Shown here: positions 3,159-59,241 of the stretch, in pieces | Numbering within the stretch: the stretch's first letter is position 1 | Layout: each line of letters opens with the position of its first letter | Assembly (NCBI GenBank): GCA_946623825.1 | Contig: CAMORN010000001.1 | Span: forward strand, 16,202-80,201 | Direction of reading: 5' to 3' | DNA: 64,000 nt | Origin: an uncultured Alphaproteobacteria bacterium | Lineage (GTDB): Bacteria > Pseudomonadota > Alphaproteobacteria > Rs-D84 | The notes under the pieces: generated by a model | Seen by the model: the letters and a program-made list of their open reading frames with translations, nothing else | The model's database searches: none | Told to the model about the DNA's origin: nothing | Program-made: the position numbers and the translations under genes

Positions 3159-4334
3159 ATGAAACAAAAAATCTTTTTAACCAGTGCACTCGCAATGGGC
3201 TTTGTTGCGCCGGCAATGGCGGAACCAAGTAATACGGGTGATTTTCCATCCACCGGTTTAATGCAGGAAGATTATACATATACCGGTGCGGCAACCGAAG
3301 CAAATATGGGCGTGTACGAGGGGACGGTTAACGCCACCGCAGAATATACAGATGATTTATATAACATCGTCGCGGGAAACTATTTAGAGGCAGGTTCCGA
3401 AGATGAAAACGGAACACAATGTACAGCGGGTAATTTCTGTCCTGGGTTAACAAATGCATTGTATAATGAAACCACAGACCAGGGATTAAATTCATGTTCC
3501 GACGCAACGAACGGAATATACACATTGTCCGCGGCTGGCGCATCATCACAAAACGAATGTTATCGTGAATGTACAACTGCGGATGTTGCACATTCAAGGG
3601 GAACATTAAATGGTGGCTATTATTACGGTGATAGCAACCAATGTGGTGCAACAGATTGTGTTGACGGTTGGCATGTCAAACCAAGTTTAGATTTAGTCAA
3701 TACAATTGGTACGGCCACAGGTGTCAATGCAAGTGTGCTCAATAATGGTAGTGCTACTGATAATATTTCAACGTATGGTTTAACAAGCAGTGATATAGAT
3801 ACATGGGTTGCGGATTTTGGTGAAAAAGGAATTTTAAGAGGAAAATCTTATTGTTCTGCTCTTTCAGGAACCGAGCATCAAACAACCAAAACAACATCAG
3901 AATTAGGTGATTATTCTAATTATAGAAATTGTTGGTGTAATGTAACAAGTTATACACCAGTTAATGGTAATACGCAAAACTTATCTTCACTTTGGGTCTT
4001 GTTTTCAGATTGGGACAATGATGGACCTTACGGTTTAGATTGTGATACTAATTGTGCTTTCGTTTGTGGTATTCAAATGGCTCGTTATCCTAATAATCGT
4101 TCTGCGTTGCTCAATTCTGTTACAGGGTTTCAGCCAGAACCAGCATCATGTGAAGCAAACATTATTAACATTAATTGGTCAAATGCGGATGCGGCGGATA
4201 TATCTGCAAACAACGCGGGTACTGCCACATACGACAGCGATATCCGTACCCCTGTCAAGGCTCAGACCATTAAGGGTAAGACATTCCGCGGTTGGCGTTT
4301 CAGCAAACCGGAACAAACAACAACTGGTAATTAA
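3159..4334 (+). CDS. Secreted Cys-rich surface protein, paralog 1 (conserved ends, variable core, InlB-B-repeat-like tail)
   Basis: Signal peptide (MKQKIFLTSALAMGFVAPAMA); clearly homologous to 58012-59241; C-terminal 'TPVKAQTIKGKTFRGWRF'; CxxxCxxxC motif in the variable core. Confidence 0.85.
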   Translation: MKQKIFLTSALAMGFVAPAMAEPSNTGDFPSTGLMQEDYTYTGAATEANMGVYEGTVNATAEYTDDLYNIVAGNYLEAGSEDENGTQCTAGNFCPGLTNALYNETTDQGLNSCSDATNGIYTLSAAGASSQNECYRECTTADVAHSRGTLNGGYYYGDSNQCGATDCVDGWHVKPSLDLVNTIGTATGVNASVLNNGSATDNISTYGLTSSDIDTWVADFGEKGILRGKSYCSALSGTEHQTTKTTSELGDYSNYRNCWCNVTSYTPVNGNTQNLSSLWVLFSDWDNDGPYGLDCDTNCAFVCGIQMARYPNNRSALLNSVTGFQPEPASCEANIININWSNADAADISANNAGTATYDSDIRTPVKAQTIKGKTFRGWRFSKPEQTTTGN

Positions 4335-4347
4335 ATTTACCGTTTAT

Positions 4348-4378
4348 AAAAAACACCGACATTTTGTCGGTGTTTTTT
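4348..4378. terminator. Bidirectional intrinsic terminator (same hairpin inverted at 57922-57951)
   Basis: aaaaaacaccgac-atttt-gtcggtgtttttt perfect stem. Confidence 0.8.
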
Positions 4379-4426
4379 TGCTATCAAAACTTGCATTGTT
4401 CAAATATTTAACATAAAATTAAATGT

Positions 4427-6475
4427 ATGAAATTCAAGAAATATTTACATTATTTTACTAATTTTATTTTCTGGGGCTTTGTGGCCGCTATTGCGGGTTT
4501 GGCTGTATTGGTTTTGATTTATGGTCATGATTTGCCAGATTATAAAAAATTGGCAACCTATACCCCACCGGTTGCAACGCGTTTATATGCGTCTGATGGG
4601 TCGCTCTTAATCGAATATGCCGAAGAAAGACGCGTTTTCATAGATTTTGAAGATATGCCACCACAATTGGTAAATGCCTTTATCGCCGCCGAAGACCAAA
4701 ATTTTTGGACGCATCCGGGTATCGATGTCCAAGGTATCATTCGTGCAAGTCTTAATAACGCAATGCGTTTAATGGGATTTGATAAAAAATTCACCGGTGC
4801 ATCTACAATCACACAACAGGTTGCAAAAAATTTCTTCCTTACATCCGACAGAACCATTTCAAGAAAGGTCAAAGAGGCAATTCTTGCATTGCGCTTGGAA
4901 CGCAGTTTTTCTAAAAAACACATAATGACTTTGTATTTAAACGAAATATTCCTTGGGGCGCGTGCGTATGGTGTTGGGTCTGCGTCTTTGATGTATTTCA
5001 ATAAATCTGTGAAAGATCTCAGTTTGTCTGAATGTGCGTTTTTGGCATCTTTGCCAAAGGCACCAAATGACAGAAATCGCGCCGTCGAACGCAGAAACTA
5101 TGTTTTACGCCGTATGGTTGATGATGGATACATCACAAAAGAGGAAGCACAAATTGCGTCCGCAGAACCATTAAATATAAATTCTGGCTTTACCGCCCAG
5201 ATGGAGGTTGATTTCCAATATTTCGCAGAAGATGTTCGTCGCAGATTGTTGGAATCTATTGGTCGTGATACATTGTATAATGACGGTTTATATATCAAAA
5301 CAACTATTGTTCCGGAATTTCAACGCGCAGCCGCCACCGCTTTGGCAAAAGAATTAGATGCGTTTAACAAGGGTAAGGGCGAAAACGAACCAAAATTGCA
5401 GGGTGCAATTATTGCTATGAATCCACATACGGGGCGTATTGTTGCGATGACGGGGGGGCGTTCTTTCCGTGAATCTTCTTTTAACCGCGCAACACAGGCA
5501 TATCGTCAAATCGGTTCAACAATTAAACCGTTTGTTTATTTAGCTGCGCTGGAAAAAGGATACAGTCCTGAATCTTTGATATTAGATGCACCGGTTGTCG
5601 GTTGGCGCGAAAATAACAAAGAATGGAAACCTGAAAATTATGACAGAAAATTCTTGGGTAATATTCCATTAAGATTTTCACTTGAAACATCTCGTAATGT
5701 GCCTACTGTCCGTCTGGTGGAACAAATCGGGGTCAAAGAATCTATTGATGCCGCACAAAGATTTGGTGTTTATCCAAAAGATTTGTCCCAATTTAATGAA
5801 TCTATGGCGCTGGGGTCTGGCGAAACAACTTTGCAGAAATTGGTGTTGGGTTATTCTGCATTTGTAAACGGTGGTCGCGCGATAGAACCAAAAATGATTG
5901 ACTATGTCGAAGACAGATATGGTAATGTCTTGGGCGGACAAAAACCTGTTCAAATCGAATGGAGCGAAGATTTATTGCCACCACAGGAAGCAGCAAAAAC
6001 AGAACCTTTGTCTGATGCACAAAGTTTATATCAAATCGTTTCTATATTACAGGGTGCTGTTGAACGCGGAACTGGAAAACAGGCACGCGTTGCGGGGCAT
6101 ACAATCGCAGGTAAAACAGGTACCACAAATCAGGTAAAAGATGTATGGTTTATTGGTTTTTCTAAAAATCTGATTGCGGGTGTATATCTTGGGTATGATA
6201 AACCAAAACCATTGGGCAAGGGCGCCGGTTCCCACATGGCTGCACGCGTATTTGCTGATTTTATGAGTGTTGCGTTGAAAGATGAAAGTAATCAACCGTT
6301 CCCAGTGCCAGATGGGTTAACTTTTATGCGTGTGAACAGAAACAGCGGTATTTCAGCAGCCCTTGATCCAGAAGGTATTATTGTCAATGAAGCCTTCAAA
6401 GAAGGTCAAAAACCAAACACCCCACAAACAGTTCAAAAACAGGTTGAACAGACAACTGTCGGTGGAATTTTCTGA
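4427..6475 (+). CDS. mrcA: Penicillin-binding protein 1A (transglycosylase/transpeptidase)
   Basis: AAEDQNF, GASTITQQVAKN, RKVKE transglycosylase motifs; STIK (SxxK), SRN and KTGT transpeptidase motifs. Confidence 0.95.
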   Translation: MKFKKYLHYFTNFIFWGFVAAIAGLAVLVLIYGHDLPDYKKLATYTPPVATRLYASDGSLLIEYAEERRVFIDFEDMPPQLVNAFIAAEDQNFWTHPGIDVQGIIRASLNNAMRLMGFDKKFTGASTITQQVAKNFFLTSDRTISRKVKEAILALRLERSFSKKHIMTLYLNEIFLGARAYGVGSASLMYFNKSVKDLSLSECAFLASLPKAPNDRNRAVERRNYVLRRMVDDGYITKEEAQIASAEPLNINSGFTAQMEVDFQYFAEDVRRRLLESIGRDTLYNDGLYIKTTIVPEFQRAAATALAKELDAFNKGKGENEPKLQGAIIAMNPHTGRIVAMTGGRSFRESSFNRATQAYRQIGSTIKPFVYLAALEKGYSPESLILDAPVVGWRENNKEWKPENYDRKFLGNIPLRFSLETSRNVPTVRLVEQIGVKESIDAAQRFGVYPKDLSQFNESMALGSGETTLQKLVLGYSAFVNGGRAIEPKMIDYVEDRYGNVLGGQKPVQIEWSEDLLPPQEAAKTEPLSDAQSLYQIVSILQGAVERGTGKQARVAGHTIAGKTGTTNQVKDVWFIGFSKNLIAGVYLGYDKPKPLGKGAGSHMAARVFADFMSVALKDESNQPFPVPDGLTFMRVNRNSGISAALDPEGIIVNEAFKEGQKPNTPQTVQKQVEQTTVGGIF

Positions 6476-6590
6476 TGTATATTTAACCCGATTTTTATCG
6501 GGTTTTATTTTATAAAAAATATATTTTTTATAATCGTTTTATTTATGCTTTTTTTATGATAAAATATCAGCATAAGAAAAGGAGATTTTT

Positions 6591-7724
6591 ATGCTGACTG
6601 ATTTCTTGATTTCACGTGGTTATCAATTTTTTGCAAGTGGATGGACTCAATTTTCTGCTGCGTTCGGTTTGTCGTTTATTATTATGCTGCTTTTTGGAAA
6701 CAGTTTTATTCGTTTGATGCACAAAATTCAAGGTATGGGTCAACCAATCAGTGATAATGTCCCATTGGAACATCAAAAGAAAGCAGGCACACCATCTATG
6801 GGTGGGGTGTTGATGATAATTGCGATATTGGTGTCTTCTTTGTTATTTATGCCAACCCATAATGCAACAGGTTGGATTGCTTTGTCATCTTTGTTAATGT
6901 TTGGGTTAATTGGTTTTGCAGATGATTATAAAAAAATTTCAAGCCAATCTAAAAAGGCGTCAAATGGTTTGTCTCCGTCATTGCGTTTGATATTAGAAGG
7001 TGTATGTGTATTAATTTTGGCTTATTTTATAGATAAAACAATGCCGGGGTATGTCCCAAATTTATCAATCGTATTGGGATCCAGTATTGTTTTACCTTTA
7101 GATTCTTGGGAAATTGGTTATTTGTTTGGTGTGCCATTAACATTGGGATTTTTATATTATGTGTTTGCGTATTTTGTGATTTGTGGTTCTGCAAATGCTG
7201 CAAACATTACAGATGGATTGGACGGTATGTTGTCCAAGATTTATTTACCAGTATTGATTGTTTTGGTTGTTGCGTTGTATGGTGCAACCAGAATTGGTTT
7301 TATGGACGCAGTTATGTTTTTACCAGAAGCAAGCGCACTGTATGCGGTATTGGGCGGGGCGTTCGGCGCAGTACTTGGTTTCTTGTGGTTTAATACAAAA
7401 CCGGCGGCTATATTTATGGGCGATGTGGGTTCACTTGCGCTGGGTGGATTTATGGGTACGGTTGCGATGTTGTTAAAATCTGAAATTATTATGGGTGTAG
7501 CAGCGGGTATGATGGTTTTGATTTTATTGTCTTCTTTCACACAAACAATGTATTTCAAATTAACACGCAAAATATCTGGTACGGGAAAACGCATATTCTT
7601 GCGTGCGCCATTGCATCATCATTTTGAAGAATTGGGTTGGCCTGAAACAAAAATTGTAGATAGATTTTTTGTACTGTCTATCTTGTTTTCTGGGTTGGCG
7701 TTGGTGTTATTGAAATTTGCATAA
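6591..7724 (+). CDS. mraY: Phospho-N-acetylmuramoyl-pentapeptide transferase
   Basis: KAGTPSMGG, ADDYKK, NAANITDGLDG, IFMGDVGS and APLHHHFE motifs. Confidence 0.97.
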   Translation: MLTDFLISRGYQFFASGWTQFSAAFGLSFIIMLLFGNSFIRLMHKIQGMGQPISDNVPLEHQKKAGTPSMGGVLMIIAILVSSLLFMPTHNATGWIALSSLLMFGLIGFADDYKKISSQSKKASNGLSPSLRLILEGVCVLILAYFIDKTMPGYVPNLSIVLGSSIVLPLDSWEIGYLFGVPLTLGFLYYVFAYFVICGSANAANITDGLDGMLSKIYLPVLIVLVVALYGATRIGFMDAVMFLPEASALYAVLGGAFGAVLGFLWFNTKPAAIFMGDVGSLALGGFMGTVAMLLKSEIIMGVAAGMMVLILLSSFTQTMYFKLTRKISGTGKRIFLRAPLHHHFEELGWPETKIVDRFFVLSILFSGLALVLLKFA

Positions 7725-7737
7725 ATGGTGTAAGAAA

Positions 7738-8889
7738 ATGGTAAGAATAACACGTGGTGAAGAAAGTAGACTGACAAATTGGTATTTCAGAACAGACAAA
7801 AAATTAATCAGTCTGTTGGCAATTTTATTGTTGGCCAGTATTATTATGATGCTTTCTGCTGGTTCGGCTGAGGCAAATCGTTTATCGCAACCATGGTATC
7901 ATTTCTTGCAAAAGGCAACACCTTTTTATCTACTTGGTATATTTTCGTTGTTTTTTTGCAGTATGTTAAACAAAAAATGGATATTGTATATAGCTTGGTT
8001 GATGTTTGCGTTTGGTATGGGGTGTATGGTTTTAACTTTGATTCAACATAATGTTATAAACGGCAGTACCAGATGGGTGTTCTTGGGTGGGGTTAGATTT
8101 TTACCTGCGGATGTGTTGAAACCCGCTTTGATTATATTGACCGCATGGTTTATGCAACGATTACAGGGAATTTATGGACAAAATATTTTCTGGAACAAGG
8201 AAGCTTTTAAATTCAGTAAAGACAGTTGGTGGCCATATATAATTGCTTTTATGATATGTTTTGGAATTATGGTTAAACAACCAGATCTTGGAACCGGAAT
8301 TTTATTCGGTGGTGTGGTGTTAATAATGGCTTTGGTCGCTGGTATGCCAATAAAATTATTTGGAATGGTGTGTGCTTTGGGTATAACTGGTGTTTTTGGT
8401 TTCGCAATAGCAACCATGTCTCATATTCAAAATCGTATGGCACAGATTTTTTATGTGCCACCACGAACTCAGGTTTGGTATTCTTTAAATGCAATTCGAC
8501 ATGGCGGGCTTATGGGCAGTGGTGATGAAGCATATGTTCAAGAGGTTTTACCAGAAGCAACAAATGATTTTATCTTTGCTGCTATCGTAGAAAATTGGGG
8601 TGCAATCGCTGCATGTATTTTGATAGCGGTATTATTTGCAATTTTGAAAGTGTTGGTGGAACATGCGATTGTAGCGAAAGATAATTTTGTTATTTATGCA
8701 TTGACGGGAACTGCCGCGTTGTTTTTCGGACAGATTTGTTTTAATTTGATGACTTCTTTGCATATATTTATAAACAAAGGAATGACATTGCCTTTCGTTT
8801 CGTATGGTGGTGGTTCTTTTGTTTCTTTCTGTATATTGTTCGGAATGGTACTTGCGCTGATAAGGGAAGATATTTGGAATAACAGATAA
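7738..8889 (+). CDS. ftsW: SEDS family cell division protein FtsW
   Basis: NGSTRW, KQPDLGT, LPEATNDFIFA and GMTLPFVSYGGGS motifs; lies between mraY and murG. Confidence 0.9.
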   Translation: MVRITRGEESRLTNWYFRTDKKLISLLAILLLASIIMMLSAGSAEANRLSQPWYHFLQKATPFYLLGIFSLFFCSMLNKKWILYIAWLMFAFGMGCMVLTLIQHNVINGSTRWVFLGGVRFLPADVLKPALIILTAWFMQRLQGIYGQNIFWNKEAFKFSKDSWWPYIIAFMICFGIMVKQPDLGTGILFGGVVLIMALVAGMPIKLFGMVCALGITGVFGFAIATMSHIQNRMAQIFYVPPRTQVWYSLNAIRHGGLMGSGDEAYVQEVLPEATNDFIFAAIVENWGAIAACILIAVLFAILKVLVEHAIVAKDNFVIYALTGTAALFFGQICFNLMTSLHIFINKGMTLPFVSYGGGSFVSFCILFGMVLALIREDIWNNR

Positions 8890-8899
8890 GGGGGCAAAT

Positions 8900-9946
8900 A
8901 TGAAAATATGGATTGCAACAGGTGGAACAGGTGGTCATGTTTTTCCAGCATTAAGTGTTGCTACTGAATTGGCAAAACGCGGACATAAAATAACCGTGTC
9001 AACAGATGGTCGCGTTATGAAAATGGTCAAAGACGGTAAACCTGAACAGGCAAATGTTGTTTTTATTTGGGCTGCTGGTGTTGGTGCTAAATCAAAAATA
9101 AAACAGATGTTATCTTTGGCAAAAATCGGTGTTTCTGCTGTCGCGTTGATTTTAAGATTTATATTTTCTCGCCCAGACAGAATGGTTGCGTTTGGTGGAT
9201 ATGCATCGGTGCCAGCTGTATTTGCTGCACATGTTTGGAAAATACCAACTTTTTTACATGAACAAAATGCGGCGATTGGTCGTGCAAATAAATTTACTAT
9301 GCGTTGGGTTAAAACTTTGATGACAAGTTTCCCATCGGTTGATGGAATGCCATCAAAAACAAATGCAAATATTATTTATACGGGATTGCCAGTTCGTGAA
9401 GATTTTATAAATGCGTCAAATACACCATTGAAACACGAAAATAAATTATTGATTACAGGTGGTTCATTGGGGGCGCAAATACTGGACGAAATTGTTCCAC
9501 AGGCAATTGCTGAAATAAAAAACAAGAAATTGTTCATAACACATCAAACCAGACCTGAAAATGTTGCAAAATTACAAAAATTTTATGCAGACCATAAAAT
9601 TCATGCAAATGTTTTGTCTTTCATTCGTGATATGTCTGGCGCGATTATAGATGCAGATTTAATTATTGGACGCAGTGGGGCCAGTACTGTAATAGAACTT
9701 GAAACGGTTGGACGACCTGCAATATTGGTGCCACTTGGTATAAACCCAGACCAAGCTGCAAATGCTGCTTCTTTTGCAAAATTGGGCGGTGGTTTTAATA
9801 TTCCGCAAGATAAATTCACAGTAAAATGGTTAACTGCAACATTGGACGATTTGTTTGATAATCCGGCGCGTCTGGACAAGATGGCAAAAAAATCTTATGT
9901 AGAAAATCTTGCCGTGCAAAAAATAGCGGATACTATAACAAAATAA
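8900..9946 (+). CDS. murG: UDP-GlcNAc:lipid I GlcNAc transferase
   Basis: GGTGGHVFP, FGGYAS, HEQNA, GGSLGA and GRSGAST motifs. Confidence 0.96.
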   Translation: MKIWIATGGTGGHVFPALSVATELAKRGHKITVSTDGRVMKMVKDGKPEQANVVFIWAAGVGAKSKIKQMLSLAKIGVSAVALILRFIFSRPDRMVAFGGYASVPAVFAAHVWKIPTFLHEQNAAIGRANKFTMRWVKTLMTSFPSVDGMPSKTNANIIYTGLPVREDFINASNTPLKHENKLLITGGSLGAQILDEIVPQAIAEIKNKKLFITHQTRPENVAKLQKFYADHKIHANVLSFIRDMSGAIIDADLIIGRSGASTVIELETVGRPAILVPLGINPDQAANAASFAKLGGGFNIPQDKFTVKWLTATLDDLFDNPARLDKMAKKSYVENLAVQKIADTITK

Positions 9947-10059
9947 AAGACACCCGAAAGGGTGTTTTTTAACAGATTAAAAAAAATTATAAATGTATAT
10001 TTTTTTGCTTGCTTGACTTTCGTGATTTGTTCTATGATTAAGCAAGGAAGGAAAGGAAT

Positions 10060-11277
10060 ATGCAGCGTTTTTCTGTTATATTTATATTATCATTAATATC
10101 ATTGAATGCCACAGCCAGTGCGTATTTGCCGGTTGTTGATGTTGCAAATGGAACCGTTTCAGCAAGGGCTGCTTTCGGTGAAGAAATAGCACCTGTAAAA
10201 AAGGTTGCTGTCGAAAAAAATGTAAAAACAACAGAAAAAAAAGTTGTTGCACGCAGTGCTAAAAAAACAAATACAGCAAAAAATTCATACGCATCAAATG
10301 ATGTTTTAAGACCTCAACGTCCAACATCTAATTTGTGGGCAAATAATGATGCGCCTTTGCGTATGCCACGTATGGATGAAATTGCTCTTATTCGTTCTGA
10401 TTCTGTTTTGCCAGAAGAAAGTATTGATTCAACAATTGCATCTAATTCAGAAAAGGTTGTTGAAAGAACTACACAACATGAAATTGATTCTTTGCGTCAG
10501 GAAATTGCGCGTTTGGAACAAAAGCAAAAAGAAACAGAAGAAAGATTGGTTCGTGCGCGTCCTGTTATGGTCAGAACACCAATCGACGGCGAAAGCAATG
10601 TTAAACCGGTTGCAAAAAATAACGATGTAAATGTTAAACGCGAAATTGTTCCTTATTCAGCAGATAAAAACACTATTGCACGCAGTGCTGTTGCAGAACC
10701 TAAATTTGCATCGGTCAGTGATATGTCAAAAATGTCGCCAAATGAATTGAAAAAGGCGTTTAAGAAAACATATTTGTCTGAAAACAAACATTTATCAACA
10801 TATCAAATAGATGATCGTTATGATGTGGCAAGTGATATGTCCGCGGACATAGAAGGTTTTTCTGCACAACGCGATTTGTCTGAAACAAATGACGGTGTTC
10901 GTCCATTGGAAATTAAAATATCTTTCTTGAACGGTGATTCTGGATTATCACGCGAAAATTATAATTTATTAAGTGAAACTGCATCTATCGTTGTAAATAA
11001 TCCAAAACGCGCGATTCAAGTTGCAATTCCAGAATCTGCGACATATGACAAAGATGCGCGTAAATTGGCTGCACGTCGTTTGGCAATTGTAGAACAGGTT
11101 TTACGTGATACTGGTGTTGCAGAACAACGCATTGTTCCGGTATTATCACAACGCGATGATGATGTTTTTGTGTTGCGTGTGATTTCTGGTGATTTGTTTG
11201 AAACTTTGACCCAACAAAAACGCAATATGTTTGGCGACAGTATTTCAAATAAAACATACAAAAGTATGTCGTGGTAA
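10060..11277 (+). CDS. Exported hypothetical protein with coiled coil and degenerate OmpA-like C-terminal domain
   Basis: Signal peptide; coiled coil 'EIDSLRQEIARLEQKQKETEERL'; C-terminal 'ISFLNGDSGLS...LAARRLAIVEQVLRDTGVAEQRI' resembles the OmpA_C fold. Confidence 0.7.
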   Translation: MQRFSVIFILSLISLNATASAYLPVVDVANGTVSARAAFGEEIAPVKKVAVEKNVKTTEKKVVARSAKKTNTAKNSYASNDVLRPQRPTSNLWANNDAPLRMPRMDEIALIRSDSVLPEESIDSTIASNSEKVVERTTQHEIDSLRQEIARLEQKQKETEERLVRARPVMVRTPIDGESNVKPVAKNNDVNVKREIVPYSADKNTIARSAVAEPKFASVSDMSKMSPNELKKAFKKTYLSENKHLSTYQIDDRYDVASDMSADIEGFSAQRDLSETNDGVRPLEIKISFLNGDSGLSRENYNLLSETASIVVNNPKRAIQVAIPESATYDKDARKLAARRLAIVEQVLRDTGVAEQRIVPVLSQRDDDVFVLRVISGDLFETLTQQKRNMFGDSISNKTYKSMSW

Positions 11278-11993: not shown

Positions 11994-12352
11994 TGTTTGA
12001 TAGCGCACAATTTTGTTTGTAAAAAATTTGCTATTTCTAATTCTTTGTGATTCATGGTTTGTGCTGTTTCTTGCAAATCTATTTTTTCTTTGCAGGCGTT
12101 TATTATATCCAACATATCTTTTTGCTCGTTTGTCAAAGGTCTGGAATTGGTTTCGTCCCATTTTACAGCCAGAATAATTTTGCCGTCTATTGCGATGTTG
12201 TATTGGTTCGTTGCCCAACCATTATGGACAGACAAAATTTCATGCCCATTTTTATCAAAAATAACGTATTGATTTCCAGAATTTGTTGCGCGATTAGAAA
12301 TCATATTGTTATGAATTGTTTCTTTGACCAATATTTTAAGAATTTTATTCAT
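11990..12352 (-). CDS. Hypothetical protein
   Basis: 120-aa ORF with GAGG RBS; converges on comF with a 4-bp overlap. Confidence 0.6.
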   Translation of the reverse strand: MNKILKILVKETIHNNMISNRATNSGNQYVIFDKNGHEILSVHNGWATNQYNIAIDGKIILAVKWDETNSRPLTNEQKDMLDIINACKEKIDLQETAQTMNHKELEIANFLQTKLCAIKH

Positions 12353-12488
12353 TTCTGACCTCTGGTTTACGTGTTAAATAATAACTGTTTTAAAGGGTGT
12401 TTTCACTAGGAACCTTTTTCGTTTATTTATTTGATTTTGTATTTTTATTGTGTAAAATTTGTCTTGGAATAAATTATTGGGGTAAAAA

Positions 12489-14891: not shown

Positions 14892-14912
14892 ATCATACAA
14901 CAGGAGGGCGCA

Positions 14913-16036: not shown

Positions 16037-16207
16037 GCGTTTTTATCCTTTGTTTATATATCTATCGTAGCACATAAAATAAATTTGTCAATATTTGTTT
16101 CTGGGTAAAATTATTTGCAAAAAAATGTGTTTTTTTATGCTTTAATCCTTGACCGAAAGGGTTAAATTTTGCTATCTTTCAAGTATTGAAAAACAAGGGA
16201 AAAAGTA

Positions 16208-44969: not shown

Positions 44970-44972
44970 ATA

Positions 44973-49294: not shown

Positions 49295-49327
49295 AAAAAA
49301 GTCCCAAATGGGACTTTTTTTATTCTT

Positions 49328-49891: not shown

Positions 49892-49985
49892 AATCCTTCC
49901 TCTTGTTTTTTAGGTTGTTTATATGATATATTAAAGATTGGAAAAATCAAATATTTTTACAAATAAAAAAAGAGAGAATAATCAA

Positions 49986-51356: not shown

Positions 51357-51433
51357 AAAATGGGTCATTTGACCCATTTTTTTATATTTTTGTTGTTGAC
51401 CAATTTGTGTAAATTTTACTATCATTTTAAATT

Positions 51434-52579
51434 ATGAAGAGAATAATCAGCTTTGCTTTTTTAATATCTTGTTTTTTTGGTGCTGTATCTGCAAAAGATT
51501 ACCGTGCGGCATTGGTTGCAGATATAGATTCTGGTCAGGTTTTATACCAAGAAAACGCAGAACAATTAAATTATCCGGCATCACTTACAAAGATAATGAC
51601 TTTGTATTTAACTTTTGATGCGCTGGAACATGACAGATTGAAATTAGATGATTATTTAATTGTTTCTCAATATGCTGCAAATGCACAGCCTGTGAAATTG
51701 GGGCTGGCTGCGGGCAGCAAGATAAAGGTTGAAGATGCAATCAAGGCTGTTGCGGTTCATTCTGCAAATGATGTTGCGCGTGTGTTGGCTGAAAATTTAA
51801 AGGGTGGTAAAGAGGGCAGTTTTGCAACCATAATGACGCGTGTCGCAAAAGAAATTGGTTTGGAACATACTAATTTTGAAAATTCTTCGGGATTGCCAAA
51901 TGAAGACCATTTATCAACTGCGCGTGATATTGCAATGTTGTCTATGGCGGTGTATAAACATTTCCCACAATATTGGAAATATTTTGGAATCAAGACATGG
52001 ACTTATAACGGCAAAACATATACAAATGGAAACAGATTATTGGGAAATTATGCCGGTTGCGATGGTATGAAAACAGGTTTTACAAATAAATCAAAATATT
52101 CGTTGGTTGCAACTGCTAAACGTGAAAATACGCATTTGATTGCGGTTGTGTTGGGTGCTGAAAATAAAGATGTTCGTGCAGATGTTGCGCAAAAAATGTT
52201 AAATCTGGGATTCAGCAAATCTGGTCAAAAAATAACAACGGTTAAAACTGTACCTGCACCAAAAAACAGTCCTGTGACGCGTTACGCACAAAATTATGAA
52301 GAATATAGCGAGCCAGTCAGATATGAATACGAAAACACCGAAATATCTGCACGTATGACAGGTGATGCCGGTGTTCAATTTGGTGCGTTTTCCGTATATA
52401 CTTCTGCACAAAATCAGGCAAAACGAGTAAATGATTTATTGGGTGTAAAACCTGAAATTGTGTATGGTGAAGAAAACAGAGTTTATCGTGTTCGTGTAAA
52501 TGGTGTGTCGGAACAAACTGCACAAAAACTGAAAAATTCTGCTGCACAACATGGAATAGATAGTTATGTTTTTCATTAA
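51434..52579 (+). CDS. D-Ala-D-Ala carboxypeptidase (S11) with C-terminal SPOR domain
   Basis: PASLTK (SxxK), SAN and KTG motifs; 'VQFGAF...YRVRV' SPOR domain. Confidence 0.92.
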   Translation: MKRIISFAFLISCFFGAVSAKDYRAALVADIDSGQVLYQENAEQLNYPASLTKIMTLYLTFDALEHDRLKLDDYLIVSQYAANAQPVKLGLAAGSKIKVEDAIKAVAVHSANDVARVLAENLKGGKEGSFATIMTRVAKEIGLEHTNFENSSGLPNEDHLSTARDIAMLSMAVYKHFPQYWKYFGIKTWTYNGKTYTNGNRLLGNYAGCDGMKTGFTNKSKYSLVATAKRENTHLIAVVLGAENKDVRADVAQKMLNLGFSKSGQKITTVKTVPAPKNSPVTRYAQNYEEYSEPVRYEYENTEISARMTGDAGVQFGAFSVYTSAQNQAKRVNDLLGVKPEIVYGEENRVYRVRVNGVSEQTAQKLKNSAAQHGIDSYVFH

Positions 52580-52591
52580 AGAAATAAAAAG

Positions 52592-53182
52592 ATGAATGTA
52601 AAGATAGAAAAACTTATTAAACAATTTGCAAAATTGCCACGTGTTGGTAATCGTGCCGCGACGCGTATTGCATTGGGTTTATTACAGGACAAAAACGGAC
52701 GTATTCAAATGTTGACGGACGCATTAACGGATGCCGCAAACTGTATTCATCCGTGTTCTTGTTGTGGTGTATTAACAGATATGGATTTATGTGAATATTG
52801 TTCTGATATAACACGTAAAAATGGACAATTATGCATTGTTCGTGATTTGTCTGATGTGTTGGTCCTTGAAAAATCTGGGGTTTTTCATGGGCGCTATCAT
52901 GTGTTGGGTGGAAATTTAAGCGGTGTTTCTGGTATCACACCAAATGATTTAAATTTAGATAATATTAAAAACAGAATAGAAAAAGAAAATATCAAAGAAA
53001 TCATTTTTGCTTTGCCAAATACGGTAGAAGGAAAAACCACACAACAATATATCATGTCAATTATTGGCGATAGAGACGTTGTTTTTTCTGAATTGGCATC
53101 GGGCGTACCATTGGGCGGTGATTTAGATTATATAGATGATGGCACTTTGACATTGGCCTTTGGGGGACGTAAAAAATTATGA
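52592..53182 (+). CDS. recR: Recombination mediator RecR
   Basis: 'KLPRVGNRAATR', C4 zinc finger, 'YHVLGG' and 'GVPLGGDLDYID' motifs. Confidence 0.95.
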   Translation: MNVKIEKLIKQFAKLPRVGNRAATRIALGLLQDKNGRIQMLTDALTDAANCIHPCSCCGVLTDMDLCEYCSDITRKNGQLCIVRDLSDVLVLEKSGVFHGRYHVLGGNLSGVSGITPNDLNLDNIKNRIEKENIKEIIFALPNTVEGKTTQQYIMSIIGDRDVVFSELASGVPLGGDLDYIDDGTLTLAFGGRKKL

Positions 53183-54012
53183 CGGATAAAATTGCTTCTT
53201 TGCCACCGGTGTCAGAAATGATGCGTGAATGCGGTTTGGAACCAAAAAAACAATTTGGTCAAAATTTTTTATTTGATTTAAATTTAACATCTAAAATTGC
53301 TAAAAATGTTCCGAATATTGAAAATATCACGGTGGTAGAGGTTGGACCGGGGCCAGGCGGTTTAACACGCTCAATTTTAATGTGTGGTGCAAAAAAATTA
53401 ATTGCAATTGAAAAAGATACAACAACAGAACCTATATTAGATAAAATTCAAGATGCGTCTGACGGAAAATTAGAAATAATTTTTGGTGATGCATTAAAAA
53501 CAGATTTATCAAATTTGAACAAAGGTGGTTATGCAATTTGTTCTAATTTACCATACAATGTTGGTACAGAATTATTAATTGGTTGGTTGCATCAAATTGC
53601 AAATGGTGTGAATATTTTATCTTTAACTTGTATGTTTCAGAAAGAAGTTGCACAAAGAATTGTCGCAAATGTAGGAAACAAGCAATACGGCAGATTATCT
53701 GTGCTTGCGAATTTAATAGCAGACACGAAAATTTTATTTGATGTTCCAAATACTGCATTTGTTCCGATGCCAAAGGTTCAATCGGCAGTTGTTCAAATTA
53801 TTCCGAACAAAGATAAAATTAAAAAAATCAAAGATATATCATTGCTTGAAAAATTAACTGCGAAATTGTTTGGACAACGCAGAAAAATGATACGCGGAAT
53901 TATAAAAACAGATTGGGAAGAATTCGGGTTGACGGGTACCGAAAGGGCCGAAGAATTATCGCCTGAATTATTCTTAAAAATATCGGGAAATATAGATAAA
54001 AATCTGATATAA
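53179..54012 (+). CDS. rsmA: 16S rRNA dimethyladenosine transferase
   Basis: GQNFL, EVGPGPG, SNLPYN and MFQKEVA motifs. Confidence 0.97.
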   Translation: MTDKIASLPPVSEMMRECGLEPKKQFGQNFLFDLNLTSKIAKNVPNIENITVVEVGPGPGGLTRSILMCGAKKLIAIEKDTTTEPILDKIQDASDGKLEIIFGDALKTDLSNLNKGGYAICSNLPYNVGTELLIGWLHQIANGVNILSLTCMFQKEVAQRIVANVGNKQYGRLSVLANLIADTKILFDVPNTAFVPMPKVQSAVVQIIPNKDKIKKIKDISLLEKLTAKLFGQRRKMIRGIIKTDWEEFGLTGTERAEELSPELFLKISGNIDKNLI

Positions 54013-54038
54013 TATTCAAGAGAGAAGGAGAGAGAAAT

Positions 54039-55742
54039 ATGTCAATTGCGACACTTATATTTTTTGCAATCGCTTTTGTTGCGGTGTTTTTTATGCGTTT
54101 ATTCCGTATGGGGACTTTGCTGGCGTTTTTATTAACTGGCGTGTTGGCGGGTGAACATGTTCTTGGGTTGTTTGAGTTGTCTGGTACTTGGAATTTTCTG
54201 GGTGAATTAGGCATAATGTTTTTGTGGTTTAATATCGGTCTGCAAATTAATATGCACAGATTATGGCAACTGAGAAGAACTATATTCGGACTTGGTGCAT
54301 CTCAGGTTTTAATGGTTGCAATTATGCTGTTCCCAATATTATTTAATTTAACCCAATGGTCTTTGATTGGTACTGTTATGATTTCTTTAATTCTAGCAAT
54401 GTCCAGTACATCTGAAGATTTACAAATTTTGATGGATAAAAACCAATTACAGACAAATATGGGTCGACAAACTTTTTCTATTTTATTATTCCAAGATTTG
54501 TTATCAATTCCATTATTGGCTATGTTGCCGGTTATGGCGGGAAAATCTATAAACCTTGGTGCATCCGCGATAGATATTTTTGTGATGTCTGTCGGTTTAA
54601 TTTTGGGTGTGTTGGTTGTTTCTAAATTCTTGATAAACCCACTTATGCACGTTGTTGCAAAGGTACAATCTAACGAAGCTTTCGTATTGGCAATTATGGT
54701 TAATATTGCTGTTTGGGCAGTTGTGTTGGGATTGATGGGGTTGCCACCTGCGTTGGGGGCGTTTTTGGCCGGTATGTTGATGTCTGAAACAGTTTATAGC
54801 CATCAGGTAAATGCCCTGATAGAACCGTATGCAACATTATTCTTGTCTTTCTTTTTCATAGTGTTGGGTATGGGAATAAATTTACCTTTCTTGGCGGATC
54901 ATTGGAATATGGTTTTAATAGGTGTTGTTTGTTTGATTGCTATTAAGTTTTTTGCTTTATTTATGGTTGCACGTGTTCGTCATGTAGGAACCAGAGAAGC
55001 AACATTAATGTCATTAATTTTAGCTCAGGGTGGTGAATTTGGTTTGTTAATTTTACAGACCATGAAAACAAATGGAATATCTGCAATACCACCAGCCCAC
55101 CAAGAAATTTTAACAGCTATCATAATTGTTTCTATTATGATGACACCTATATTGGTTTTGATTTATGATCAATTTTTGAAATATGGATTAATATTTAATG
55201 GGGATAAAAATAAAAAAATATCAGAAGCAATTGTTGATAATACCCCGTCTGTTATAATCTGTGGTTTTGGTCGTATGGGACAAATTATTGCTCAGATGTT
55301 AGAAAGCGAAAATATTTCTTATGTTGCAATAGATGCAAATGTAGATGAAGTGGTTATGGCACGCGAAAGTGGTTATAATGTTATATATGGTGAATCTCGC
55401 AAAAAAGCTATTTTGTTGGCTGCTGGATTTAAATCAACAAAAACAAAAGCAGTTGTTATCGCTTTGAATGACGAAGTTGTTGCCCAAGAAGTTGTTCATA
55501 CAGTTAAAAGTATGTCAAATCGTACAAAAATATTTGCACGTGCACATAATTTAAAATCTTCACAAGAATTACTCGATTTGGGTGTAAAATCTGCAACACC
55601 AGAAATAATAGAATCTTCATTTACAATTGGTGAAAATTTAATGGCTGGGTTGGGATTGTCTCAGAATAAAATCAGTAATTTATTGAAAGATTTGCGTGCA
55701 AATAATTACGCGAAGGTCAAAAAACCAATTGATACAAAATAG
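54039..55742 (+). CDS. KefB/KefC-type cation:proton antiporter with TrkA-N domain
   Basis: 'ILLFQDL', 'LGAFLAG', 'LAQGGEFG' and 'ICGFGRMGQ' motifs. Confidence 0.93.
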   Translation: MSIATLIFFAIAFVAVFFMRLFRMGTLLAFLLTGVLAGEHVLGLFELSGTWNFLGELGIMFLWFNIGLQINMHRLWQLRRTIFGLGASQVLMVAIMLFPILFNLTQWSLIGTVMISLILAMSSTSEDLQILMDKNQLQTNMGRQTFSILLFQDLLSIPLLAMLPVMAGKSINLGASAIDIFVMSVGLILGVLVVSKFLINPLMHVVAKVQSNEAFVLAIMVNIAVWAVVLGLMGLPPALGAFLAGMLMSETVYSHQVNALIEPYATLFLSFFFIVLGMGINLPFLADHWNMVLIGVVCLIAIKFFALFMVARVRHVGTREATLMSLILAQGGEFGLLILQTMKTNGISAIPPAHQEILTAIIIVSIMMTPILVLIYDQFLKYGLIFNGDKNKKISEAIVDNTPSVIICGFGRMGQIIAQMLESENISYVAIDANVDEVVMARESGYNVIYGESRKKAILLAAGFKSTKTKAVVIALNDEVVAQEVVHTVKSMSNRTKIFARAHNLKSSQELLDLGVKSATPEIIESSFTIGENLMAGLGLSQNKISNLLKDLRANNYAKVKKPIDTK

Positions 55743-55805
55743 ATACATATCATTTGATTTTATGATGTCTAATTGCTATATTTTAAGAAACATAGGGAAA
55801 TTAAA

Positions 55806-56357
55806 ATGAAAAAGTTTCTTAAATATATAGCAATTATTTTTTCTGTATTTCTTATAGATTTAATAAGCAAGGTTGCTTTGTTGCATTTTCTTGCGCTGAA
55901 ATATGGTGATATTGTTTATAACCCGAATGTGGTTTGTGCAAAATGTCATATAGAGGGAATCTTTGTTCCATGGCAATATATAATTGGTTCTGATTTTGGA
56001 ATATCTCATTTGTTTAATGTTATTTTTGTTTGGAACAAGGGTGTTTCTTTTTCTGCTTTCGCGGGTATTATGCCAATAATAATATCTTTGTTAACCGCGT
56101 TAATTATTGCTTGGTTGATATATTATTTAATCAAGAAAGCGGCCAATTGGGAAAAATTACCTTTGGCAATTATTATAGGTGGTGCATTGGGTAATCTGGT
56201 TGACAGAATTCGTTTCGGCGCAGTTGCTGATTTTATACATTGGCATATTGGTAAATTGTGGACTTTCCCCGCGATATTCAATGTTGCAGATATATTTATA
56301 ACATTTGGTGTATGTTTATATTTAATAAATTTTATCAGAAACAGAAAGCATAAATAA
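55806..56357 (+). CDS. lspA: Lipoprotein signal peptidase II
   Basis: WNKGVSFS, GGALGNLVDR, VADF and FNVAD motifs. Confidence 0.95.
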   Translation: MKKFLKYIAIIFSVFLIDLISKVALLHFLALKYGDIVYNPNVVCAKCHIEGIFVPWQYIIGSDFGISHLFNVIFVWNKGVSFSAFAGIMPIIISLLTALIIAWLIYYLIKKAANWEKLPLAIIIGGALGNLVDRIRFGAVADFIHWHIGKLWTFPAIFNVADIFITFGVCLYLINFIRNRKHK

Positions 56358-56371
56358 AAAAAGGGTAAATT

Positions 56372-57916
56372 ATGGTTCAATATATGAATAATTCTGGTTT
56401 TAATCAATGGAATTCAATGCGTGAAAAAAACAATGCAAAACCACGCGCAGGATTTTTTACATGGTTGATAATGTTTTTAATTGCTTGGTGGGTTATTGGT
56501 TTGTTCGTACCGTCAAAACAAGACGCAACAAAAACAATAGAAACAACACAAATTGAAAAAACAAATGTAAAATCACAAACCCGTGTTGATGAAAATATTT
56601 CTTTTGATGTTCAGGGATTGCGTATATCAAAAATAGATTTATTGAAACACAAACAATCTGCAAAATCAGATGAAAAAGTTTCTTTGTTAAACGGTGAAAA
56701 TAATTTCATAGAAATTGGTTTAATTTCATCTGATGTGAAAACACCAAACATAAACACAAATTGGGAACATAAATCAAATTCATTGCATTGGAATTCTGAA
56801 AATGTTCATTTTGTTCGTGATATAAATGTTAATGAATATGTTATAACAATTACTGATACAATCAAAAATAATTCAGGCAAAGAAATAAGTATTACACCAT
56901 ATGCAAATATTGTTCGCAATGGTGTTGACGCTAAATCTTCTGTGGTTGAAACGGGCGGTGTTGTTTATGCAAACAAAGATTTAGATTATGCAAATTGGAA
57001 TCAATTGGATAAAAAATCTTTTGCATATTCTACGGTTCGTGGATCAATTGGTTTTGCAGATCAATATTGGGAAACAATATTATCGATTGACGCAAACGAC
57101 CAAACAATGAGTGTAAAGAAAAACGGTGAAAATTATTTTGCACAAACAAACGCTGCGCCGGTCAAGGTTGCCCCAAAATCAGAATCAAAAATAAATACTT
57201 ATATTTTTGCGGGCCCACGTTCAAGTGATGCGTTAAAAAATGCAGAAAGTATTATTCCGGGTATAGATGAAACAATCGATTATGGTTGGTTCTGGTTTTT
57301 CGCACAACCAATGTTGTGGATGTTGAATTGGTTGTTTGCGTTGGTTGGAAATTATGGAATCGCAATTATTTTGATGACTTTAATTGTCAGATTGTTGATA
57401 TGGCCATTAACACGCAAATCATATGTATCAACAATGATGATGCAAAAAATGCAACCTGAAATGCAAAGGGTTCAAAAATTATATGCAAATGACAAAGCGC
57501 GTCTTCAAATGGAAATGATGAAAATTTATCAAACACATAAAACATCGCCTATGTCTGGATGTTTGCCAATGTTGATTCAGATTCCAATCTTTTTCGCGTT
57601 GTACAAGGCTTTATTGATTTCCGTTCCTATGCGTTCAGCGCACTTTTTATGGATATCAGATTTAGCGGTAATGGACCCATATTTTATATTGCCAATTGTT
57701 ATGGGTTTAACAATGTGGTTGCAACAATATTTACAAACCCCAATCAAAACAACCGGTAATGATGTAATGGCATCTACACAACGTGTTATGAAATGGATGC
57801 CTGTGTTGTTCACAGTAATGTTCGCATGGATGCCGGCGGGTTTGGTTTTGTATTGGACGGTGTCTAATTTATTTGGAATATTGCAAATGTATATTATTAA
57901 AAAGACCACCAAATAA
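56372..57916 (+). CDS. yidC: Membrane protein insertase YidC
   Basis: DYGWFWF, GNYGIAII, MQKMQPEM, GCLPMLIQIP and LVLYW motifs. Confidence 0.97.
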   Translation: MVQYMNNSGFNQWNSMREKNNAKPRAGFFTWLIMFLIAWWVIGLFVPSKQDATKTIETTQIEKTNVKSQTRVDENISFDVQGLRISKIDLLKHKQSAKSDEKVSLLNGENNFIEIGLISSDVKTPNINTNWEHKSNSLHWNSENVHFVRDINVNEYVITITDTIKNNSGKEISITPYANIVRNGVDAKSSVVETGGVVYANKDLDYANWNQLDKKSFAYSTVRGSIGFADQYWETILSIDANDQTMSVKKNGENYFAQTNAAPVKVAPKSESKINTYIFAGPRSSDALKNAESIIPGIDETIDYGWFWFFAQPMLWMLNWLFALVGNYGIAIILMTLIVRLLIWPLTRKSYVSTMMMQKMQPEMQRVQKLYANDKARLQMEMMKIYQTHKTSPMSGCLPMLIQIPIFFALYKALLISVPMRSAHFLWISDLAVMDPYFILPIVMGLTMWLQQYLQTPIKTTGNDVMASTQRVMKWMPVLFTVMFAWMPAGLVLYWTVSNLFGILQMYIIKKTTK

Positions 57917-58011
57917 AAAACAAAAACACCGACAAAATGTCGGTGTTTTTTCGCTTTTTTCAAGACCCAATTTTTGGTATAATATTCGTATCAAAAAAAG
58001 GAAAAAGAGAG

Positions 58012-59241
58012 ATGAAAAATAAAATATTTTTAAGTTCTATGTTGATAATGTCTGTTGCACCGGCAATGGCGGAACCAAGTAATACGGGTGAATTTCCAAC
58101 CGGTGGTTTAATGCAGGAAGATTATACATATACCAATGCCGCAACATCAACCAACATGGACGGCGTATATGAAGGTTCAGTCAACGCCACCGCAGAATAC
58201 GAAGATGTGTTATATCAAATCGCCGCTGGACAATATTTACCGGCGGGCGCGGAATCGCCAATAGATTGTAATGTTGCGGGTTCGTTTTGTGCTGGGGTGC
58301 AAAATGGTGTTTATTATGATGCAAATAATAATCAGGGTTTAACATCATGTTCGGATGCGACAAACGGCGCATATACATTATCCGCCGGAACTGGTGACAG
58401 CGTAAATTCATGTTATCGTGAATGTACAAACGCGGATGTTGCACATTCCAAGGGAACATTAAATGGTGGTTATTATTACGGTGATAATAACCAATGCGAA
58501 CCAACAGACTGTTTTGACGGTTGGCATGTGAAAGCGGGTGTAAACGGTTCCGCAATTGCAACTGCAATTGGTACCGGAGAAGGTGAAAACAGAGCAAGTA
58601 TAAACGGCGCTGGTACATTCAAGCAACAAACATATGGTGGAACCGATCGTGCCCAGGCATTTTATGGCTTAACCGATAACAACACATGGGCGGTATATTA
58701 CGACAGCACCCATGGAATGTTGACAGGACAAGCGCGCTGCAGCACACAAAGTGGTAGCCTAGGAGAAATGTCAAATGGTACATATCCAGATATAACCACA
58801 TTCGCATCTTTAACCGATGAAACTGGACAAGAGGGTGCAAAATATTGTTATTGTAATGTAACCGGATATAAAGATACAAATGGCAACTTGCAAAGCTTGT
58901 CCTCCCCTTGGGTGTTCCGCAGCGACCTCTTCGGCGTGTCGGGTTGCGCGAACAGCTGCGCTGACTACTGTGCGTCTTACATGCGTGGCGCGAACTCGGG
59001 CAACCTCGCGTATCGTGCTGCGGTGTTTGGTTCAATTGAATCAAGTCCAGCCATGTGTGAAGCCAATACAATTACAATTAATTGGTCAAATGCAGATGCG
59101 GCTGATATATCTGCAAACAATGCGGGAACCGCGACATACGGTTCTGACGTTCGTACCCCAGTTAAGGCACAGACAATTAAGGGTAAAACATTCCGTGGTT
59201 GGCGTTTCAGCAAACCACAACAAACAACAACTGGTAATTAA
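58012..59241 (+). CDS. Secreted Cys-rich surface protein, paralog 2; putative DGR target
   Basis: Signal peptide; homologous to 3159-4334 at the N-terminus (through GWHVK) and the C-terminus (CEAN...TTTGN); contains a GC-rich, A-poor internal segment. Confidence 0.87.
   Translation: MKNKIFLSSMLIMSVAPAMAEPSNTGEFPTGGLMQEDYTYTNAATSTNMDGVYEGSVNATAEYEDVLYQIAAGQYLPAGAESPIDCNVAGSFCAGVQNGVYYDANNNQGLTSCSDATNGAYTLSAGTGDSVNSCYRECTNADVAHSKGTLNGGYYYGDNNQCEPTDCFDGWHVKAGVNGSAIATAIGTGEGENRASINGAGTFKQQTYGGTDRAQAFYGLTDNNTWAVYYDSTHGMLTGQARCSTQSGSLGEMSNGTYPDITTFASLTDETGQEGAKYCYCNVTGYKDTNGNLQSLSSPWVFRSDLFGVSGCANSCADYCASYMRGANSGNLAYRAAVFGSIESSPAMCEANTITINWSNADAADISANNAGTATYGSDVRTPVKAQTIKGKTFRGWRFSKPQQTTTGN
58894..59031 (+). 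other. Putative DGR variable region (VR)
   Basis: 46 consecutive codons with no third-position A; 22 end in C. 58901-59030 has 83/130 G+C and 14/130 A. Includes the run cgc-agc-gac-ctc-ttc-ggc. No template repeat seen in the window. Confidence 0.7.

Follow-up and report, generated by a model that had tools for sequence, protein, structure and literature searches.

The described systems closest to the one reported here are the diversity-generating retroelements (DGRs) of the Treponema denticola TvpA family and of Legionella LdtA, in which a template repeat, a reverse transcriptase (RT) and a small accessory gene lie beside one target, substitution is adenine-specific and turns AAC codons into NNC, and the targets are dispersed paralogs encoding exported proteins. 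DGRs with multiple or remote targets (up to seven remote targets) and a few internal variable regions have also been documented (PMC5758913). In the Bordetella phage BPP-1, the single target is the tail-fibre protein Mtd, which has a C-type-lectin fold and a variable region at its extreme C-terminus, and the accessory protein is Avd. Here we describe a family of putatively exported proteins of Candidatus Enterousia (order Rs-D84), represented by two genes, gene A and gene B, in a window of 64,000 nucleotides (positions 16,202 to 80,201 of contig CAMORN010000001.1, forward strand, assembly GCA_946623825.1). The source genome (G000) comprises 0.93 Mb in 16 contigs, the assembly being 76% complete, and it was compared for presence of the family with 40 related genomes, 24 from the same genus and 16 from other genera of the order.

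Family members in congeners lie in cassettes of the TvpA and LdtA kind, with template, RT and a small accessory gene beside one target, the same AAC to NNC change, dispersed paralogs and predicted export. In contrast to TvpA and LdtA, the variable region is internal and is followed by a conserved domain of 61 aa, it falls on a predicted two-helix hairpin with a ladder of cysteines instead of a C-type-lectin fold, the 108-aa accessory protein of the congeners has no match in Pfam, PHROGs or NCBIfam, neither RT nor template was found in the source assembly, and the target family is also mosaic through recombination among paralogs. With BPP-1 the family would share, by inference, mutagenic retrohoming from a template, an invariant scaffold and variable residues facing the solvent.

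The best overall explanation, to which we assign a probability of roughly 0.8, is an exported modular family that is diversified both by exchange of segments among paralogs and by a DGR patch. Each member would be a Sec-exported protein of about 400 aa, composed of a signal peptide, an N block with a Cys-rich repeat, a core that includes the hairpin, and the 61-aa tail. Segments of the N block, core and tail would be exchanged among paralogs by recombination or gene conversion, giving rise to mosaic genes and to replaced interiors at conserved chromosomal loci. In the relatives, a second layer would be added by an RT that copies an adjacent template repeat with errors at adenines, the copy overwriting the hairpin patch so that AAC becomes NNC on one hairpin face while the Cys/Ala scaffold stays constant. 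Gene B and three paralogs would carry such DGR patches and gene A a decayed one.

In congeners, family members are bona fide DGR targets. In genome G009 (contig L042) an RT lies 2.3 kb downstream of a family member, the order being target, a gene for a 201-aa Cys-rich protein, a 188-aa open reading frame (ORF), the template repeat, a 108-aa ORF and a 343-aa RT with the motif IGNLTSQ. The variable region (2363-2512) and the template repeat (4274-4423) are 89% identical. Of the 16 mismatches, 15 involve adenines of the template (11 A>G, 3 A>T and 1 A>C), no difference is seen at 95 non-adenine sites, and template AAC codons appear as NNC in the target. The same layout is repeated in G015 and in RGIG7797, where the cassette sits beside nrdD/nrdG, and an automated scan of 73 family loci returned six template/target pairs with at least 82% of their mismatches at adenines. 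An RT was found in 24 of 61 genomes of the genus, and the congener enzyme matches PF00078 and phrog_1423 (E 4e-99). Immediately upstream of the RT, in the position of Avd, lies the conserved 108-aa ORF (L042:4665-4988, L043:2288-2614 and L102:1233-1556).

The same signature is seen in gene B of the source genome. In a composition scan of gene B, a stretch of about 140 bp (58885-59030) stands out, where GC rises from about 40% to 62% and A falls from about 30% to 10%, and no such shift was found in gene A by the same scan. Three further paralogs (named here by contig and position in the source genome) have homologous patches, at C2:124066-124285, C2:53124-53346 and C15:4240-4424. The patches alternate invariant islands of G, C and T with variable sites, and these sites fall at codon positions 1, 2 and 3 in 23, 22 and 14 of 30 cases, compared with 9, 6 and 17 of 33 just downstream (p 0.006). 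Third positions of the gene B patch never carry A (0/42 vs 109/333 elsewhere, p 3e-7), and their GC content (GC3) is 74% in a genome of 35% GC. Gene B thereby shows the adenine-directed codon signature, that is, NNC codons that vary at positions 1 and 2 within an invariant A-free scaffold. The patch aligns codon by codon with the G009 template repeat, from which it differs at 20 of 31 adenines and at 16 of 94 other sites (p 1.4e-6). Across three variable regions of the source genome, variation affects 28 of the 31 positions at which the G009 template has adenine, as against 24 of 101 others (odds ratio 30, Fisher p 2.5e-11). Moreover, when the four paralogs are compared at four-fold-degenerate scaffold sites, 62 of 70 comparisons show identity, compared with about 62% in the flanks (p 4e-6), which speaks for templating of the scaffolds from a common repeat later than the divergence of the paralogs. 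In an alignment of 104 homologs, invariant W, C...C...C, A, L/M and LAFRAA columns alternate with pairs of hypervariable columns (3.2-3.8 bits), occupied mostly by S, D, N, Y, G and R.

The corresponding patch of gene A (3990-4145) keeps the CxxxCxxxC pattern, and among its third positions T accounts for 30 of 52 (p 0.003) and A for 9 of 52 (p 0.02). Such T-rich third positions are expected of NNC codons under C-to-T drift. In the sister metagenome-assembled genome (MAG) RUG14070, the syntenic ortholog of gene A has a patch that is still NNC-rich and scaffold-matching, and at the gene B locus the situation is reversed, the RUG14070 ortholog having a T-rich, decayed-looking patch and the source genome a variable-region-like one. 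The gene A patch is probably the fossil of a variable region, left either by decay on the spot or by replacement.

The two genes and their parts are as follows (window coordinates).

3159..4334, plus strand: gene A, a 391-aa family member with a suhB-like gene on one side and PBP1A on the other (from the ORF, paralogy to gene B and the syntenic locus in RUG14070)

3159..3221, plus strand: gene A, predicted Sec-type signal peptide MKQKIFLTSALAMGFVAPAMA followed by EPS (read from the sequence; the AXA site is kept across paralogs)

3222..3680, plus strand: gene A, conserved N block, beta-rich N1 and Cys-rich N2, ending in GWHVK (alignment)

3681..3989, plus strand: gene A, divergent middle of the core, including C.CNVT.Y (alignment)

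3990..4145, plus strand: gene A, T-rich helical-hairpin patch with CxxxCxxxC, positional homologue of the DGR variable region and putative fossil (codon composition; model helices 295-309 and 311-319)

4149..4331, plus strand: gene A, C-terminal 61-aa tail domain, CEAN...GKTFRGWRFSKP... (comparison with gene B; sub-threshold Flg_new match)

4341..4380, plus strand: gene A, predicted intrinsic terminator GTTTATAAAAAACACCGACATTTTGTCGGTGTTTTTTT (hairpin and T-run)

58012..59241, plus strand: gene B, a 409-aa family member with yidC on one side and the virB9/virB10 cluster on the other

58012..58071, plus strand: gene B, predicted Sec-type signal peptide MKNKIFLSSMLIMSVAPAMA followed by EPS (read from the sequence)

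58072..58533, plus strand: gene B, conserved N block (alignment)

58534..58917, plus strand: gene B, beta-rich part of the core, up to ..LSSPWVF (structure model)

58918..59031, plus strand: gene B, DGR-type variable region of 114 bp or 38 codons, RSDLFGVSGCANSCADYCASYMRGANSGNLAYRAAVFG (composition, codon match to the G009 template, predicted hairpin helices 309-325 and 329-340 bearing CxxxCxxxC); homology to the template repeats of relatives starts about 20 nt upstream

59056..59238, plus strand: gene B, C-terminal 61-aa tail domain (alignment, model, sub-threshold Flg_new match)

59248..59285, plus strand: gene B, predicted intrinsic terminator, bidirectional-looking (hairpin and T-run)

60258..63956, minus strand: type IV secretion system (T4SS) genes, the virB9/virB10 cluster

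The reading frame of gene B is open from an ATG at 57937, and ATG 58012 (MKNKIF...), just preceded by a purine-rich ribosome-binding site, is the probable start, because the upstream ATG sits within the terminator hairpin of yidC (57922-57950). The initial annotation, made from the window alone, had proposed that the two genes share a signal peptide and N block around a divergent core of roughly 155-175 aa, and this holds. The proteins are 55% identical end to end (BLASTP, E 8e-138), both have signal peptides of the AXA type (..APAMA before EPS), and the core between GWHVK and CEAN, about 157 aa in gene A and 175 aa in gene B, aligns poorly and keeps the three motifs G..RCS, C.CNVT.Y and Q.LSS.WV. 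All complete paralogs have, as judged by eye, a K-rich n-region, a hydrophobic core, the site APAMA before EP and no lipobox, and are accordingly predicted to be exported through Sec. The shared 3' sequence and hairpin were likewise found, GTTTATAAAAAA standing directly 3' of both genes and leading into a G+C-rich hairpin with a T-run; these hairpins are ordinary intrinsic terminators. The stem CACCGAC....GTCGGTG is common to the hairpin after yidC, upstream of gene B (57922-57950), and to that after gene A (4350-4378), with the loop inverted, and looks like a reused bidirectional terminator module. As for the neighbouring T4SS genes, the VirB10/TrbI homolog has 806 aa, with long Pro/Glu-rich repeats (EPEPEPIVEPEP...) and a Cys-rich C-terminal extension, and the VirB9/CagX homolog carries a SPOR domain.

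The 61-codon tails of genes A and B differ, as had been noted, at 5 residues despite many synonymous changes (28 of 183 nucleotides in all), with a proportion of synonymous differences (pS) of 0.49, synonymous (dS) and non-synonymous (dN) divergences of 0.80 and 0.055, and a dN/dS ratio of 0.07. For the N block dS is 0.79 and dN/dS 0.30, and the middle is near saturation. In most pairs of family members the tail has a proportion of non-synonymous differences (pN) of 0.01-0.1 and a pS of 0.3-0.7, with pN reaching 0.24 in pairs that include the divergent C2:123226. The tail is thus under strong purifying selection, as the initial annotation had supposed.

Nucleotide identity was compared block by block. 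Gene A and C3:53170 are 95% identical in N2, 40% in the core and 91% in the tail. Gene B is identical to C14:6098 at 100% in the signal peptide, 72% in N2 and 34% in the core, to C7:18294 at 91% in N2 and 48% in the core, and to C2:123226 at 52% in N2 and 89% in the CxC segment. As such values could reflect selection alone, we compared synonymous differences, and relied on these because tree tests are limited by the saturated core. Between gene A and C3:53170, pS is only 0.08 in N2 but reaches 0.39 in the tail (Fisher p 3e-4) and 0.56 in the core (p 6e-9); between C15:3359 and C2:123226 it climbs from 0.16 in N2 to 0.70 in the tail (p 1.6e-8); and between C1:202047 and C3:95388 the core (0.19) is lower than N2 (0.44; p 4.5e-4). 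Between genes A and B, pS is uniform across blocks (0.44-0.66), which indicates that these two have not recently exchanged segments with each other.

Replaced interiors are also seen at syntenic loci. The suhB-like and PBP1A genes that flank the gene A locus in RUG14070 are 97% identical in protein and 89-91% in DNA, and the DNA match extends 194 nt into gene A, where it breaks off near ..AEY, to be found again only over the final 221 nt (82%). The interior of gene A (3353-4097), comprising N2, the core middle and most of the putative fossil patch, gave no blastn match to the syntenic gene, whose N2 block is of the C15:3359 / C2:123226 type. At the gene B locus the flanks are 83% identical to RUG14070 over 3.5 kb, and within the gene only the tail region aligns. 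In the more distant Enterousia SGB_3006, yidC directly adjoins the two small genes beside virB10, a family member being absent from this site. Replacement of segments by way of the conserved ends, which the initial annotation had raised as a possibility, is therefore supported for the family, through discordant pS and replaced interiors, but not as a recent event between these two genes.

A six-frame search of the source genome found 13 members, two of them cut by contig ends, together with one 220-aa relative, so that genes A and B, first taken for the products of a single old duplication, have 11 further paralogs in the same genome. The core had rightly been called divergent, although these paralogs and the DGR variable region within it had been missed. 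With 13 members, the case of two copies and no more, which would have spoken against the initial annotation, does not apply. The source genome was also searched with hidden Markov models (HMMs) of the separate blocks. The N-block model recovered the small protein, the 12 members that have an N-terminus, and five larger ORFs, each with 4-8 repeats of the Cys-rich part. The core model recovered 11 members and also matched a 2699-aa ORF twice and, more weakly, an 1804-aa ORF. The tail model recovered all 13 members and the end of an 872-aa ORF. The 2699-aa ORF (C3:~2-8099) contains the family core domain with its hairpin region twice, and the weaker matches lie on C1. The 11 untruncated copies are found on at least 7 contigs, and every one of them is a complete ORF that has a signal peptide, a ribosome-binding site and a 3' end of its own; the two copies at contig ends have reading frames that are open as far as they can be read.

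Among the 41 genomes, 14 have family matches, namely the source genome and 13 of the 24 congeners, with up to 46 matches in one genome, and none of the 16 genomes from other genera has any; the family is restricted to a subset of Ca. Enterousia. A large protein database holds 157 homologs, all without names, and the carriers are Candidatus Enterousia or rumen and gut Alphaproteobacteria MAGs. Neither protein A nor protein B has near-identical variants by cluster look-up, both being singletons. One member lies on a short contig (L089, JAFTTH010000041.1, 1963 bp) of a MAG labelled Oscillospiraceae, most likely a binning error and not horizontal transfer.

Several features accompany the family without being part of its members. 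A small secreted Cys-rich protein (201-220 aa) with the family N-terminal motif FP.D.LMLENHVY.NAAVFENLG.Y.G, and with no match in the family libraries, is encoded at L042:3018-3620 (G009), L043:3105-3761 (G015) and C1:162618-163280 (source genome); the gene sits between target and template in two DGR cassettes and adjoins paralog C1:160988 in the source genome. A (CA)n run of about 9-13 units lies 140 nt upstream of C1:153274, C15:3359, C1:202047, C8:12468 and C14:6098. The run gives way to a conserved leader, roughly 110 nt long and placed immediately ahead of the ribosome-binding site, which contains two hairpins, the second of them resembling a terminator. In three further paralogs the hairpin leader is of another type (ggttggaggg...aacctccaacc), and neither arrangement is present in genes A and B. 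Phase variation could result from the (CA)n tract. At the 3' side, an element consisting of CCAATTGG, a hairpin and AAAGGGAAATCATGGTTCTCTTTCTTTTTCCTAGGCACCCCG is found 90 nt downstream of C3:53170, C15:3359, C7:18294, C2:52281, C1:153274 and C8:12468, and in its place gene A, C1:202047 and C14:6098 share TAAATTTACCGTTYATAAA and a terminator.

Full-length proteins A and B have no match in Pfam, PHROGs or NCBIfam. An AlphaFold2 model of gene B, built from the 104-sequence alignment (mean predicted local distance difference test, pLDDT, 81.7), has a beta-rich N1 module, a poorly predicted Cys-rich linker (113-160), a core (170-345, pLDDT 95-98) of beta strands ending in the two helices that make up the variable region (309-325 and 329-340), and a tail (348-400, pLDDT 91-94) of four strands and one helix; the model of gene A has the same architecture. 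Foldseek found nothing below E 0.3 (best 0.3-1.2) for both models against PDB and for the gene B model against BFVD. No Pfam match to a C-type-lectin / FGE-sulfatase fold was found either, the variable region lying on a helical hairpin, and with no Foldseek match better than E 0.3 the predicted target scaffold is therefore not the C-type-lectin fold of known DGR proteins. A weak local resemblance of the Cys-rich part to the cysteine-rich domain of EphA2 (Foldseek probability 0.28) was set aside as a lead only.

The tail had been compared with InlB-B and Flg_new domains, and this likeness stands as a resemblance below threshold. PF09479 (Flg_new) matches 22 of 23 tails (best E 1e-4), gene B scoring 15.8 bits against a gathering cut-off of 27, and PF18998 (Flg_new_2) matches 7 of 23; full-length proteins gave no PF09479 match at E<=1, and a tail profile run against PDB sequences returned only chance matches, with no InlB among them, nor was there a match by fold. 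The tail may thus be a Flg_new-like domain at sub-threshold level. It may have in common with the Listeria-Bacteroides repeat / InlB B-repeat (PF09479, PF18998) the G.tF.GW signature and a small predicted strand-helix-strand domain, and differs from these in being a single copy at the extreme C-terminus and not a tandem array. A shared role in anchoring or sorting would fit, since the tail is strongly constrained and is likewise found at the end of other large secreted proteins. Family members may be surface-exposed or secreted ligand binders, adhesin- or receptor-like, as judged by analogy with DGR targets and with surface proteins that bear Flg_new, and one side of the disulfide-stapled hairpin would then be their specificity face.

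Several observations weigh against the proposal of DGR-driven diversification combined with segment exchange. The 76%-complete source assembly contains no RT, as judged by a PF00078 search and by tblastn with the RTs of congeners, no template repeat, and no homolog of the 108-aa accessory gene or of the terminase, the small Cys-rich gene being the only one for which tblastn with the cassette proteins of congeners found a homolog. The site next to nrdD, which harbours the cassette in RGIG7797 (NrdD 93% identical), is occupied by other genes in the source genome. Non-adenine mismatch of the gene B patch is 17-23% to the two closest heterologous templates and 32% to that of G015, and 17-35% to all available templates, and scans of viral, metagenome and genome contigs found no cognate template. 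Among the candidates examined, a near-match to the 5' anchor at C2:216151 proved to be a chance match inside a gene for an FtsX-like membrane protein; the A-free 18-mer CTCGCGTTCCGTGCTGCG had seven matches in viral contigs, all in unrelated GC-rich phage genes; and the anchored variable-region pattern had three matches in metagenomes, all of them variable regions in family genes and none a template. One of these three is identical to paralog C2:123226. The metagenome contig L126 (AUXO014117975.1) has a 416-aa reading frame and a variable region that match this same paralog, and probably comes from the same strain or sample as the source genome, so that it is not an independent view of variable-region turnover. 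On the side of segment exchange, approximately unbiased (AU) tests of tree conflict were weak (p 0.034 for one clade, 0.44 and 0.34 for two others), because the core is saturated. The patches could thus be relics of past DGR activity, and one may picture an ordinary fast-evolving paralog family that has lost its retroelement, with the GC-rich patches as fossils and with diversity produced by point mutation, indels and recombination under diversifying selection. We regard this as a serious contender that falls short of being probable. The closest many-copy congeners (G001 and G002) are also without a detectable RT, some third positions vary inside the patches, and decay of a patch to T-rich sequence is exemplified by gene A and, in RUG14070, by the ortholog of gene B. 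Yet the gene B patch retains the GC3 and the lack of third-position A described above, in a genome of low GC, and the 89% identity of scaffold synonymous sites, well above the flanks, points to templating after the duplications; moreover, DGR cassettes in prophage-like contexts easily drop from bins, and this assembly is incomplete.

The conserved ends around divergent interiors, and the evident block-wise recombination, also recall antigenic variation from an expression site and silent cassettes, with the ends guiding gene conversion, as in Anaplasma msp2, Neisseria pilE/pilS and Borrelia vlsE, and an adhesin or antigenic-variation repertoire had been suggested in the initial annotation. The family does share conserved ends, a hypervariable middle, mosaic blocks and a host-associated reduced genome with Anaplasma msp2/p44, Neisseria opa/pil and Mycoplasma mgpB/MgPar. 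However, all copies look independently expressible, promoterless cassettes truncated at the 5' or 3' end are absent, the copies are spread among housekeeping genes and not clustered at one expression site, and genes A and B show no recent mutual exchange, which makes such a scheme improbable. Still less can be said for two other possibilities. Prophage receptor-binding or tail proteins, with host range diversified as in BPP-1 Mtd, are brought to mind by the terminase large-subunit-like gene that adjoins the G009 cassette, but genes A and B lie amid housekeeping genes (suhB-like and PBP1A; yidC and virB9/B10), carry predicted Sec signal peptides and match neither PHROGs nor, in structure, viral proteins, and the RGIG7797 cassette has no phage genes beside it, so that we consider this origin very unlikely. 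Equally doubtful is that the proteins are dedicated substrates or pilus-tip adhesins of the neighbouring T4SS: gene B lies about 1 kb from the virB9/virB10 cluster, yet it is convergent with the cluster, with a terminator between, the other 12 copies are located elsewhere, the yidC-virB10 neighbourhood of SGB_3006 has no family member, and an N-terminal Sec signal is atypical for T4SS effectors. An exported family diversified by segment exchange and by a DGR patch continues to be our preferred explanation.

A more far-reaching combination, which we put forward as speculative, is that DGR mutagenesis on a hairpin scaffold, block shuffling and (CA)n switching act on one exported family in two or three tiers. 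Such a system would have a previously unseen scaffold, a disulfide-laddered hairpin placed internally before a Flg_new-like sorting tail, and an accessory protein unlike Avd. Recombination among about 12 dispersed loci would flip single loci between "live" and "fossil" variable regions, and on/off switching would come in addition from the (CA)n tracts and structured leaders that precede some copies. Full-text literature searches retrieved no report of DGRs in rumen Alphaproteobacteria or Enterousia, and the target family with its non-lectin scaffold, the unclassified 108-aa accessory protein, and the combination with paralog mosaicism in Ca. Enterousia each appear to be undescribed. For DGR biology, the family would offer a target scaffold that departs from the canonical C-type-lectin fold, a variable region that is internal and under constraint from the domain downstream of it, and retroelement mutagenesis together with segmental recombination on one gene family. 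The recruitment and loss of targets could be followed in its natural series of orthologous loci, where live variable regions stand against decayed ones.

Ca. Enterousia are Alphaproteobacteria of ruminant and horse guts, described as farm-animal gut bacteria with genomes below 1 Mb and without the TCA (tricarboxylic acid) cycle and respiration (PMC12306168), and how these uncultured gut and rumen bacteria of the Rs-D84 order live is not understood (PMC12306168). Thirteen genes of about 1.2 kb, in addition to giant relatives, are an unusually heavy investment for a genome of 0.93 Mb, and for this reason the family points to molecules that mediate contact with a partner cell or substrate. If the combined scheme is true, an obligate gut symbiont with a genome below 1 Mb would possess a compact toolkit for surface variation.

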